DNA of 13,366 nucleotides from positions 1-13,366 of the forward strand of contig JBLFWS010000092.1 in NCBI GenBank assembly GCA_047611865.1, read 5' to 3'. Numbering within the stretch: the stretch's first letter is position 1; every line of letters starts with the position of its first letter. This DNA is from Chlamydiales bacterium (lineage in GTDB: Bacteria > Chlamydiota > Chlamydiia > Chlamydiales > JBDQID01). The notes beneath the pieces were generated by a model, which was not told the DNA's origin, searched no databases, and saw nothing but the letters and a program-made list of their open reading frames with translations. Shown piece by piece: positions 1,684-4,608 of the stretch. The translations under genes and the position numbers were made by a program.

Positions 1684-1849
1684 ATATACACAAACAACTT
1701 GAAGAATTGAAATTTTGGGCCTGAGATTTTTCCGACTGACGGAGCCTCAAAATTCTGGATATACTTGGACAAGTAGGCGGAATCTTCAGATTTCGTCAGG
1801 TGGAAAAAGATCGAGCCAAAAACCGATTCTTCAAGTTTTTTGTGTATAT
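1684..1849. mobile_element. Palindromic MITE-like element A (~165 bp, TA-flanked)
   Basis: 1684-1707 pairs with 1826-1849 at 23/24 positions (ATATACACAAACAACTTGAAGAAT / ATTCTTCAAGTTTTTTGTGTATAT). Pairing continues imperfectly to an apical TACTT-ggac-AAGTA stem at 1762-1775. Confidence 0.8.
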
Positions 1850-1884
1850 AAACCACTTATTTTCCTGAGGTCAGGTGGGATGCT

Positions 1885-3240
1885 TTACCCATGGTAAGGA
1901 GGGGCTATATGGGGGTATCTACAAGTAATCTCAGAAAGAACATCGTCAGGACGAACTCTGATAACCGGCTCCAGTTTTTCTCTGTACCTTGCTAATTTCA
2001 TTTTCCCTGCCAAGTTTCCTTCCCGACCCTTTTCTTCAACATGACCGAACTTACCCTTAAGGTATTCTTCAAAGACCTGTCCGGCTTTGTAAACCTCGCT
2101 GCCAGAACCAGGATTCTTTTTCAGGTAGCGCTCAAGAAATGAAATAGATTGAGCATTTTTAACGAGAGAGGGACTCATATCAATCCAGCTGACGTGTCTA
2201 ATGCCATCTACAAATTCTTGGGGCTTAACCCTTAAATCATCAAATAGCTTGGGCATTTTTGAACTATGGACAATATGATCCATGCTAAAGACGGGGCAGC
2301 TGTTCCCATCATGTTGTAATTTATTGCTTTCTTGACCCTTTTCGTCTTTTACTGAAGCTAAATAGATTTCATCGATGCCAAGTTCTCTTAGCTCTTGTGC
2401 GACTTTAAAACAATTTGGGTCGTTTGCAGCGTCCATTATAAAACATTTTAAACCTTCGCTACTCATTTCAAAATCGAGTGCTGTATAATGTACGCCACTT
2501 CTAACCAATAGTTGTATTCTCCTACTACCTTCTTCAGGAAGATTGGCTTGTAACTGATTCACAAAATCAGTTATTTCTACTCTGTCAAGGACAAATGCAT
2601 CAAAATTATATTCTCCTTTTCTGCTGCGAGACATCGTTTTCTCATGCATTAGCAGGCGTAACATTTCATCTTTTCTTCCTGCCCCATCCAATTGTAACTG
2701 GCCAAAAAGTTTTTCTCTGAGGGCTGATGTTTCGCGCCTTTGAAGTGTGCTGAGCCCATGGAAAAGAGTGGGGATTTCTTGGGCAAGCGGGCTGGGAGGC
2801 ACTCCTTCGAGGGGGGCATATTTTTGTGTCACTTCGGCTAAGGTTTTACTGTCTATATCCTGAAGGAACTCTGTGACAGAAACAGGTAATGGATCCTCTC
2901 CTTGGAAAATTCTGTTGAACAGTTGATCTAAGTTATTTCGTAATTCACATCGAGTTGAGCTTATATCGGAGCCTTCGCTTTCTAGTGCTTTTTGGACTTT
3001 TCTACTAAACAATTTCCAAATGTTGACGGAAACAAGCGGTATCTCTTGTCTGTGAAACTTTTCTGCGCAACTAGGGATTCTTTCAAAACTGCGGGAGCTT
3101 GGTATAGGAATATCTTCTTCTCCGGAAATGTCCGCTAATGCCGGGCATGATCTAGGTCTCATTATTCCGGGATCTTCATCTGTCATTGAATACAACGTGG
3201 CAGAATAAGTAGTTGCACCTGTTTGTATCGAACTAGCCAC
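1885..3240 (-). CDS. YopJ/AvrA-like CE-clan effector, paralog of 595..1683, with an S/T/P-rich N-terminal extension
   Basis: 451 aa, GTG start preceded by a GGAGG Shine-Dalgarno. VH251YTALD…FIMD270AA…LQHDGNSC315PVFSMDH and MSPSLVKNAQS. Confidence 0.85.
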   Translation of the reverse strand: MASSIQTGATTYSATLYSMTDEDPGIMRPRSCPALADISGEEDIPIPSSRSFERIPSCAEKFHRQEIPLVSVNIWKLFSRKVQKALESEGSDISSTRCELRNNLDQLFNRIFQGEDPLPVSVTEFLQDIDSKTLAEVTQKYAPLEGVPPSPLAQEIPTLFHGLSTLQRRETSALREKLFGQLQLDGAGRKDEMLRLLMHEKTMSRSRKGEYNFDAFVLDRVEITDFVNQLQANLPEEGSRRIQLLVRSGVHYTALDFEMSSEGLKCFIMDAANDPNCFKVAQELRELGIDEIYLASVKDEKGQESNKLQHDGNSCPVFSMDHIVHSSKMPKLFDDLRVKPQEFVDGIRHVSWIDMSPSLVKNAQSISFLERYLKKNPGSGSEVYKAGQVFEEYLKGKFGHVEEKGREGNLAGKMKLARYREKLEPVIRVRPDDVLSEITCRYPHIAPPYHG

Positions 3241-3503
3241 TATTAACCTCCATATATTATTAAATGTAACTATATGGCCATTGTAGATTAGTTTTGCTTG
3301 TATTGTATAAATAGTTTGTTAGGATTTTGTTTAATTCGGGATTTTTAGGTTTGGCGGCGGATTCAACAGTCTAGCCGAACGGCAAGTGAGAAAAAGAGAG
3401 CTTTTCGTTCATTCCGGAGTTTATATCTCTATTTTTAAGTATATTTTAGTTCATTTACATATGATTTACTTAAAGAAAGTGTAAAGATTTTTGTCGCTGG
3501 CGT

Positions 3504-3572
3504 TGGCCTTTCCTTGTGGCTTTCCCTCCAGGACAAGTCATGGGTGAGAGGGAAAGCCACAAGAAAAAACCA
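3504..3572 (-). repeat. Strong inverted repeat / stem-loop
   Basis: Perfect 16-bp arms at 3513-3528 (CTTGTGGCTTTCCCTC) and 3548-3563 (GAGGGAAAGCCACAAG). Extends to 25 bp on the minus strand using three G·U pairs. Confidence 0.8.
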
Positions 3573-3575
3573 CTG

Positions 3576-4144
3576 CTTGAGCCTCAAAAAATGAAGTGCT
3601 TGAGTTCTTTGTTAGGGTACTTTCCAGCCAAAGTAAATATTCCCCCTTAGGAGTTGCGTAAGAAAGGACTGCCTTGGGTCTCTGATTTAAAATATTTTCC
3701 ACTCGGAAAAATTTCCTCATCCGAGTATTTTCTCAAATCTATTTTCTTCGGGAAACACTCTCGAATTAGACCATTTGTGTTTTCATTAGTTCCTTGTTGT
3801 TGAGGTTGGCCCGGATCTGCGAAATAAACCTGAATGCCCACTTTTTCTGTTAGTCTCTCATGCTCGGCCATTTCAGTGCCTTGATCATAGGTAAGACTTT
3901 TACGGAGGTGTGGTGATAATTATTCATGTACTTCGATAAATGCATCGGCTACAGTTTGTGAATTACGGGCTTTCAATGGTACTATAAGGGTATATCGACT
4001 ACTCCTCTCTACCAAAGTTCCCATCGCAGATTGTTGCTCCTTACCTATGATAAGGTCTCCTTCCCAATGGCCAAATTCTTGACGATCACCTATGGGAAAA
4101 GATCTTTTATGGATTGAGACCTTGTTTTGAATACCTCCTCTCTT
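3576..4144 (-). pseudogene. IS30-family transposase remnant (C-terminal DDE half plus probable right end)
   Basis: Reads KVSIHKR…RQEFGHWEGDLIIG…TLVERSSRY…SLTYDQGTEMAEH…YFADP…GTNENTNGLIRECFPK…LNQRPKAVLSYATP. In-frame TAA at 3920-3922, frameshift near 3710, N-terminal HTH missing. CTTGAGCCTCAAAAAATGAAGTGC at 3576 resembles IS30-type ends. Confidence 0.92.
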
Positions 4145-4608
4145 GAGGTTCTTTGAGCTGACTCCAGCAAATTCTACTATATGCTCTAGACAAACAAGCC
4201 TAGTACTTCATTTCAATTAGATTTTCGGGTTGCGTGCTGATATTTCCCCGTCTGGTGAACTGTGGAGATCGAAACCAACCCATTTGGTGTTAGTGAGATC
4301 TCCACAGTTTGCTAGGTGGTAAAAGATCGGTGCTCAACCCGAAAATCGGATTGAAATGAAGTACTAGAGCAGAACCCTAGAATTCGAGCTTCAGAATCGC
4401 GTGAAAGTTGTGACGCACTCCTCGTTTCTTTTTAGGGTCGGAAATACTGTTTAGAGCTTCGAAAAGGGCTAGGCTGGTGGAGTTAAATGTTTCATTAGCT
4501 GTCTCTGTGGAAATGCTCATCTGTTATGTACCGTTAGTTTTGTTATCAGTGTGAAGCGATAAGCTTACAACAAATTCAAATTTAACTCACGACTTTGCAG
4601 GGATCCTG
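4145..4608 (-). pseudogene. ISAs1-family element 5' remnant (left end plus N-terminal transposase fragment), interrupted by element B
   Basis: ATG at 4520: MSISTETANETFNSTSLALFEALNSISDPKKKRGVRHNFHAILKL (frameshift) ILGFCS|RLVCLEHIVEFA…WSQLKEP, i.e. the 'DPR..RG.RH….IL' H-repeat N-terminus. CAGGATCCCTGCAAAGTC (4608-4591) resembles ISAs1 CAGG(G)…GCAAAGTC ends. Confidence 0.78.
4200..4367 (+). mobile_element. Palindromic MITE-like element B (168 bp including both CTAG flanks)
   Basis: Perfect 18-bp terminal IR (CTAGTACTTCATTTCAAT). Gap-free 71-position stem, 4200-4270 with 4297-4367: 57 Watson-Crick, 9 G·T, 5 mismatches. Removing it leaves one CTAG and restores the ISAs1 frame. Confidence 0.88.

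Follow-up and report, generated by a model that had tools for sequence, protein, structure and literature searches.

The DNA analyzed here, a stretch of 13,366 nucleotides (nt) from the draft genome of a member of the Chlamydiales (the window, hereafter), carries two short fold-back elements, A and B, among open reading frames (ORFs) and the remains of insertion sequences (ISs) (Table 1). Element A is situated between convergent ORFs at 595-1683(+) and 1885-3240(-), and B interrupts the remnant of a transposase gene. The initial annotation had delimited both as full-length fold-backs (1684-1849 and 4200-4367), and these coordinates hold. The RNA minimum free energy is -70.4 kcal/mol for A against a shuffle mean of -34.1 (z -9.65) and -101.8 kcal/mol for B against a shuffle mean of -38.6 (z -17.2), with 0/200 dinucleotide shuffles as stable as the element in either case. 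The better-folding strand, termed the top strand, is the plus strand for both, and the R1 covariance model scores 135.2 bits on this strand of A (77.0 on the minus strand) and 113.8 bits on that of B (63.9 on the minus strand).

The two 16-mers that had been picked out as common to the elements, at 1798-1813 and 4314-4329, are placed exactly and are 15/16 identical, and a repeat finder lengthens the A/B match to 45 nt in register at 71% identity. The shared interior is nevertheless not confined to the 16-mer, as first thought: the real shared core spans about 90 nt. Nor are the ends of A and B unrelated, both being TA-(G)TAC... ends of the IS630 type. The A·G mismatch noted in both elements is real, but its form is not the same in the two: in A, AGAT is present on both arms (1724-1727 and 1808-1811) and yields a tandem G.A/A.G in the fold, whereas in B there is a single A.G mismatch, 4242 with 4325. 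The central stem of B pairs GGAGATC (4264-4270) with GATCTCC (4297-4303), and the centre of A is GAAAATTC.../...GGAATYTTC; both centres are atypical, most subfamilies having GAGATCGA on both arms. Taken with the copies and searches described below, A and B very probably represent two subfamilies of one superfamily of ~163-base-pair (bp) non-autonomous miniature inverted-repeat transposable elements (MITEs) of environmental chlamydiae, built of two modules.

Table 1. MITE copies, their cores and transposon remnants in the window
Feature	Position	Strand	Remarks
MITE copy A	1685..1848	+	164 bp including TA on each side; subfamily with TATACACAAAC... ends
Core of copy A	1722..1813	+	from ..TGAGATTTTTCC.. 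to ..GGAAAAAGATCG
MITE copy B	4201..4366	+	166 bp; subfamily with (C)TAGTACTTC... ends
Core of copy B	4237..4329	+	from CTGATATTTCCCCG to GGTAAAAGATCG
A-type right-arm fragment, 26 nt	4648..4673	-	96% identity
3' end of IS630-family insertion sequence	1..127	+	98-100% identity to 7 other places across 127 nt
rve-type (DDE integrase-core) transposase pseudogene, frameshifted	3650..4207	-	B inserted in it

Copies, core and spread of the family

Both elements proved to be multi-copy, not single-copy, when searched against the source genome (G000, a 3.59-Mb draft, 95.5% complete). For A there are about ten full-length paralogs (76-87% identity), together with fragments and copies that have diverged further, and B has eight copies at 95-98% identity, plus diverged subfamilies. 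An nhmmer profile built from 18 copies detected 87 related loci, and a second round recovered 82 loci (58 spanning the core), together 0.30% of the draft and dispersed over many contigs. Copies with clean inverted ends number 38 and form 17 clusters at 80% identity; the length is 163-167 bp in 31 of these copies, and a scan for inverted repeats starting with TATAC, TAGTAC or TAGTGC placed 29 of its 44 pairs 162-167 bp apart. The elements are short and non-coding (162-168 bp, arms complementary at 22/24), the sole overlap between the 38 copies and ORFs of at least 100 amino acids (aa) being a 101-aa antisense ORF that was judged spurious, and 14 of the 38 lie between convergent genes. Half-elements were considered as possible IS ends and rejected, as they are truncated or interrupted copies. 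The window itself holds two full copies and one 26-nt fragment, and no further member was found in it, with the hairpin at 3504-3572 falling outside the family (E 0.49). This hairpin, with 25-nt arms, is held by a 191-bp stretch (3430-3620) that recurs at two other places (contigs C148 and C44) beside the same rve-type transposase; the stretch is probably the end of an rve-type insertion sequence, outside the MITE family.

That A and B are members of a single superfamily of structured mobile elements, as proposed, is borne out by their interior, which is kept in all 17 clusters. The core, ~90 nt common to the subfamilies from AGAGATTTTTT to AAAAAGATC, is laid out as ..AGAGATTTTTT..CTG..AAGCGYGGAGATCGAAG..loop..GAGATCGARCRC..CAG..GGAAAAAGATC..., and the outer ~35 nt on each side are specific to the subfamily except for the terminal TA-(G)TAC. 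The same arrangement of a conserved interior under divergent arms, the central claim of the initial annotation, extends well past this genome, the core being present in 44 further genomes of the 150 searched. A covariance model built from 31 copies detects the family in 45/151 genomes and 38/111 genera of the order, G000 included, and in a second, phylum-wide sample the family is in 42/151 genomes; in the latter sample there was no match in 27 small genomes of 1.0-1.2 Mb, the size of those of Chlamydia, all of one family. Per-genome copy numbers from the order-wide and phylum-wide searches are lower bounds, to be read as "at least", scoring having been limited to 19 candidates per genome; a dedicated search gave 89 matches in G037 (both strands counted) and 29 in G148. 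In an order-wide alignment of 44 sequences (15 subfamily representatives from G000 and one copy from each of 29 genomes), the information per column is 0.7-1.2 bits in the core versus 0.3-0.6 bits in the arms, and the columns of AGATTTT, GGAGATCGA, GAGATCGA and AAAAGAT are retained in 33-44 of the 44 sequences.

An exact core-pattern scan of one genome per prokaryote species returned at least 119 stretches, with 80 loci listed. Among the matches listed, 26/80 fit the model, and the fitting loci are mostly labelled Chlamydiae, Simkaniaceae, Waddliaceae or Waddlia, six of the 26 bearing other labels (three 'uncultured bacterium', two 'Verrucomicrobiae' and one 'Bacteroidetes'). The remaining 54 of the 80 listed loci fall outside the model; four that were inspected are a conserved coding stretch, which we take to be ClpB. 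Among the matches listed, nothing points to the core occurring beyond chlamydia-like genomes, apart from the few otherwise-labelled loci. Three of these (L163, with the Bacteroidetes label, and L155 and L186, with the Verrucomicrobiae label) are true copies at 62.8-78.2 bits, and reflect either chlamydial DNA that was wrongly labelled or binned, or a transfer between phyla.

Arms and core also occur apart from each other. The full-length IS630 elements of the genome lack the core motif at their ends. Conversely, the same arm type encloses an unrelated interior of equal length in a 163-bp copy of the source genome (L063, G000:C28:8568-8730), and unrelated interiors are likewise seen in copies of G076 and G077 (L089 and L092, 163 and 162 bp); G148 has core-less elements of 70-82 bp (at places 351540, 484858 and 1309563). 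From this separate occurrence it can be concluded that arms and core assort separately, with the length of ~163 bp being kept. The unrelated interiors of L063, L089 and L092 are perfectly palindromic. Two copies of G169, L100 (G169:C1:1093-1177) and L101 (G169:C34:20791-20875), have an intact left arm and core and stop exactly after ...AAAAGA, that is, at the conserved AGAT motif, past which come unrelated flanks, and a third, L099, has its start exactly at GATTTTTT; the conserved AGAT motif may be a site of breakage or recombination. A shared functional site in the interior, as initially proposed, appears plausible.

Arms, IS630 elements and insertion sites

The initial annotation had proposed a candidate undescribed family of structured mobile elements. 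That the kind of element is new is not supported: since their ends match IS630-family insertion sequences of the same genome, A and B are very probably IS630-type MITEs. Between the genome's IS630 ends and the arms of particular MITE subfamilies, the match extends over 25-30 nt only, after which the sequences diverge. One such matching end is that in the window, at 98-127: here, positions 1-90 correspond to the last 29 transposase codons and the stop, the terminal inverted repeat ...CAAGCCGATTCTTCAATAACGATGGGTATA ends at 127, and the IS end (1-127) has CCGATTCTTCAA...GTATA in common with the right arm of A. The places matching 1-127 include C35:213-340 and C204:5297-5423. The C35 ORF contains a DDE_3 domain (PF13358, 7.2e-18), which is found in five ORFs of the genome, and the NCBIfam IS630 equivalog (cut-off 100) is matched by ORFs on C121 (200.4 bits) and C11 (146.6 bits). 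The end of B, in turn, matches that of a longer element on C255 at 25/28. A 60-aa N-terminal fragment from that element has no significant Pfam or NCBIfam match (only DUF5688, E 0.081) and does not resemble the C121 transposase by BLASTP; its homologs, however, are of 165 aa with HTH_29 and HTH_32 (PF13551 and PF13565), and one of 244 aa carries DDE_3, which by predicted domain content is the IS630 architecture. IS200/IS605-type elements and REP/REPIN, which have subterminal hairpins and a tyrosine (HUH) transposase but neither terminal inverted repeats nor a target duplication, were considered as well and are excluded by the long terminal inverted repeats together with the duplicated target, an HUH transposase not having been searched for.

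The site of B can be read from a paralogous copy of its target. The rve-type pseudogene, the N-terminal piece of which lies on the far side of B at 4380-4523(-), matches PF00665 at 2.1e-4 and 6e-4, below the Pfam cut-off. An empty paralogous site (C11:36640-36778) has the same flanks as B and reads through without the element at a single CTAG, and the window at the corresponding point reads CTAG-element-CTAG. From the single CTAG of the empty site and the two of the filled one, it follows that B was inserted precisely at CTAG. In contigs of two metagenome runs (X2 and X3), 4203 runs straight into the sequence after 4367; this form was rejected as a true empty allele of B, as it comes from, or equals, the paralogous IS copy. 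Every copy of the A type is flanked by TA, and flanks across the source genome agree on TA only. In four copies of other genomes (L072, L077, L082 and L090, from G052, G060, G039 and G024, respectively) TTA stands on both sides, a 3-bp T-N-A duplication. No empty alleles of A were seen among the metagenome DNA contigs, and an empty-site search with all 38 copies gave two junction-spanning matches, both due to another adjacent repeat.

These observations fit a mechanism in which the terminal 25-30 nt of the ~35-nt outer arms, the first module, would be copies of the inverted repeats of differing IS630-family insertion sequences, which would supply the DDE transposase in trans; the element would then be cut and pasted into TA, which in the case of B would be a TA within CTAG. 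Mobilization by IS630 transposases is what we infer from the ends. Three points weigh against it. For the A type no empty site was found, and a TA target is deduced only from the invariant TA flanks. The duplication at B fits either TA or CTAG, both of which are compatible with an IS630 target, the classical IS630 target being CTAG with TA duplicated. Further, a search for IS-sized partners by inverted repeats returned, apart from the IS630 element on C11, only an ISNCY-family element on C75 (348 bits against a cut-off of 325) with TAGTGCC... ends, and this ISNCY/IS5-like element is a possible alternative driver for the TAGTGC subfamilies.

The last two points can be developed into a different account, in which the B type (CTAG...CTAG) was moved by an IS5/ISNCY- or IS1380-type transposase that duplicates a 4-bp CTAG. 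Such an account would agree with the one CTAG of the empty site and the two of the filled one, as well as with the presence of the C75 element. It is, however, improbable: the end of B resembles that of the C255 element, whose homologs have HTH_29/HTH_32 and DDE_3; the C11 IS630 element itself has TAGTGC ends with TA on its flanks; and insertion into CTAG with TA duplication is classical for IS630. Were the driver of the B type nonetheless not of the IS630 family, the same core would be riding on the ends of two transposon superfamilies.

Two other repeats of the genome are met at these elements. The most abundant has an end at 13058-13366 of the window, where it runs off the contig; this end, starting GGCATGGTTCAATTCAAGG..., is common to 39 places with A/T-rich flanks, its depth in sequencing run X1 is 1943 versus 59 for the remaining window, and the repeat interrupts MITE copies on C220/C181, C108, C143 and C98, plus one copy in G169. 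The second, with CTAGGTCGTGTATTAAAATTAGGGAATGTCTGATTTTGAG as its start, directly adjoins several MITE copies at their CTAG/TA end (G000 contigs C122, C51, C136, C81, C99 and C143). TA-targeting elements seem to pile up end to end. Elsewhere in the window, a 323-aa ORF at 6584-7555 (-) matches the Omptin outer-membrane protease family (PF01278, 6.3e-54).

The predicted fold of the core and its possible roles

The structure of the family was derived from the column pairing of a MAFFT alignment, because RNAalifold on this alignment, where the unrelated arms are out of register, gave only 12 pairs. In the resulting 60-pair structure 84.7% of the cells are paired, a share that falls to 39-49% once the partners are shifted by 1-3 columns. 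Compensatory changes are found in 49/60 pairs, including 18/23 in the core helix, which is not expected to contain a transposase-binding repeat; these pairing and covariation counts are generous, as structure and counts come from the same alignment and the sequences are related.

The mismatches are distributed unequally between the strands. In the 38 copies, oriented by the core, there are 286 G.T versus 73 A.C, 191 G.A versus 39 C.T, and 33 G.G versus 6 C.C. The asymmetry is also seen in the non-homologous outer arms, with G.T 53 versus A.C 20 in the 17 cluster consensuses and 59 versus 22 when 29 other genomes are represented by one copy each (sign test for the 29: 20 positive, 3 negative, 6 ties, p = 0.0005). 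The top strand is the more stable in 37/38 copies with both RNA parameters (-81.6 versus -61.8 kcal/mol for top and bottom) and DNA parameters (-41.9 versus -34.2), and in 27/29 copies from the other genomes. All 41 occurrences of the motif AGATCGA are on the top strand, with none on the bottom strand. Where a palindrome would oppose GA to TC on the other arm, both arms here read GA, at the outer motif as well as to either side of the central GATC, which gives up to three tandem G.A pairs in the fold. This strand pattern is not predicted by a double-stranded protein site, and cytosine deamination could not give rise to the G.A excess. It is thus quite possible, and we suggest it tentatively, that the core acts as a folded single strand, either a top-sense transcript or single-stranded DNA. 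The second module would accordingly be the ~90-nt core, with pairing kept by compensatory changes and GA on both arms at up to three places. A more specific version, which is doubtful but deserves stating, is that this core is a strand-specific small RNA or single-stranded DNA hairpin with three conserved tandem G.A pairs, which has spread through environmental chlamydiae between the ends of a dozen or more IS630 lineages, the ends being interchangeable vehicles and the folded core the part that selection retains.

Several observations limit or weigh against this reading. Kinship within the family inflates the independence of the covariation and asymmetry counts. The orientation in the 29 genomes was set by a covariance model that itself favours G.U; a sequence-only motif agrees with this orientation where present, in 23/29, and is found 0 times on the bottom strand. 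The central GAGATCGA pair of the order-wide consensus is absent from A and B themselves. No orientation bias to neighbouring genes is apparent (19 upstream on the same strand versus 25 downstream facing the element), nor a significant GC-skew bias, either in G000 (24 on the G-rich versus 32 on the C-rich side, 56 elements) or in G148 (5 versus 12 core-bearing copies), so that there is no independent sign of the top strand being exposed or transcribed. There is likewise no conserved promoter, with 6 sites versus 5.1 expected from shuffles, one of them inside A. In G148, eleven consecutive matches on C1 between 350 and 985 kb, eight of them core-bearing, lie on the minus strand, and the local GC skew keeps its sign where the orientation later changes. 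Dam methylation as a use for the GATC sites was rejected, as no gene for a Dam-type methylase (PF02086) was found in the 95.5%-complete G000.

The core could alternatively be a double-stranded DNA site, either an inner transposase site, such as those of the IR/DR ends of some Tc1/mariner elements, or a site for a host bending protein that would help to bring the two ends of a 163-bp element together. The fixed length of ~163 bp, maintained even with unrelated cores, suggests a physical constraint at the DNA level, the A-tracts are symmetric on both arms, and a precedent exists in the 155-bp Correia element, the 50-bp internal part of which is described as binding IHF and might aid transposition (PMC2229807). 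A double-stranded site nevertheless leaves unexplained the GA on both arms at up to three places, the roughly 3:1 excess of G.T over A.C on one strand, arms included, and the compensatory-pair changes in the core stems, and the core motif is missing from the full-length IS630 ends; on balance it is rather unlikely. No IHF-like consensus was recognized by eye in the chlamydial core.

MITE interiors are usually seen as dispensable, and a simpler possibility is that the interior is functionless and was merely passed down from a common ancestor, the ends having changed faster as they tracked the available transposase. All subfamilies do align over the whole interior, as common descent predicts. 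That nothing more than descent is involved is, however, very improbable: the arms have become near-random (0.3-0.6 bits), but 33-44 of the 44 sequences, from 30 genomes of many families, retain the core columns, the core stems keep their pairing by double changes in 18/23 pairs, and neutral decay would yield equal G.T and A.C. The two-module explanation as a whole, with the core under purifying selection across the order, is the one we hold with considerable confidence.

Related systems and significance

A cmscan of the window against Rfam (E up to 1) gave no family match, consistent with the initial suggestion of an undescribed family, and on the two elements it returned only a plant-microRNA model at 24.2 bits versus a gathering score of 80. 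Comparison with RUP, Correia, ERIC, RPE and YPAL was by kind only, not by sequence. The closest in kind is perhaps best approached through RUP of pneumococcus, a 107-bp MITE of one family in one genus that is attributed to IS630-Spn1 (PMC2229807, PMC3049150). As described in these sources, it is similarly a non-coding intergenic fold-back with ends resembling an IS630 element of the same genome. It inserts at TA and is often found inside other insertion sequences, as B is inside a transposase pseudogene (PMC2229807, PMC3049150). In contrast to RUP, the chlamydial elements are ~163 bp long and comprise at least 17 subfamilies with the ends of several IS630 lineages around one core, in at least 38 genera.

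The Correia/NEMIS elements of Neisseria, in their 155-bp form, are reported to duplicate TA and to give rise to a long hairpin transcript that is processed by RNase III (PMC2229807). Their internal segment has its own function, with an IHF site lying in the 50-bp internal sequence (PMC2229807), and would be a parallel to the core; their internal module, however, is present or absent under one family of ends, whereas the chlamydial core is found under many. The CIR repeats of Caulobacter and Brucella carry a conserved interior GANTC methylase site in a folded repeat (PMC2229807), and the chlamydial core resembles them in holding a short conserved interior motif, with up to three GATC. Unlike the chlamydial elements, CIR repeats are without terminal inverted repeats, and there is the lack of PF02086 in G000; moreover, GATC alone would leave the strand-specific GA flanks of the chlamydial core unexplained.

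A survey of the literature on MITEs and repeats in chlamydiae, with subscription journals and supplements outside the search, found no description of the family. The Waddlia genome paper counted repeats only above 200 bp (PMC2878342), a threshold under which the ~163-bp elements fall, so this census would have missed them. Thus, the kind of element is a known one, an IS630-type MITE, and the superfamily appears to be undescribed in print.

MITEs are normally defined by their ends, which are also thought to be what is selected. Here the situation is the reverse: the ends are variable, and what has been retained, in at least 38 genera, is a folded middle. What is unusual is the combination of an order-wide core under many interchangeable ends, a fixed length and a strand-specific folding signature, and the excess of G.T over A.C, the G.A pairs and the compensatory changes are not predicted by double-stranded cut-and-paste transposition. 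For those working with chlamydial metagenome-assembled genomes, the family is a source of many contig breaks and intergenic hairpins. If the core does act as RNA or single-stranded DNA, it would constitute a new structured element of chlamydiae, a functional module that uses transposon ends as its vehicle.

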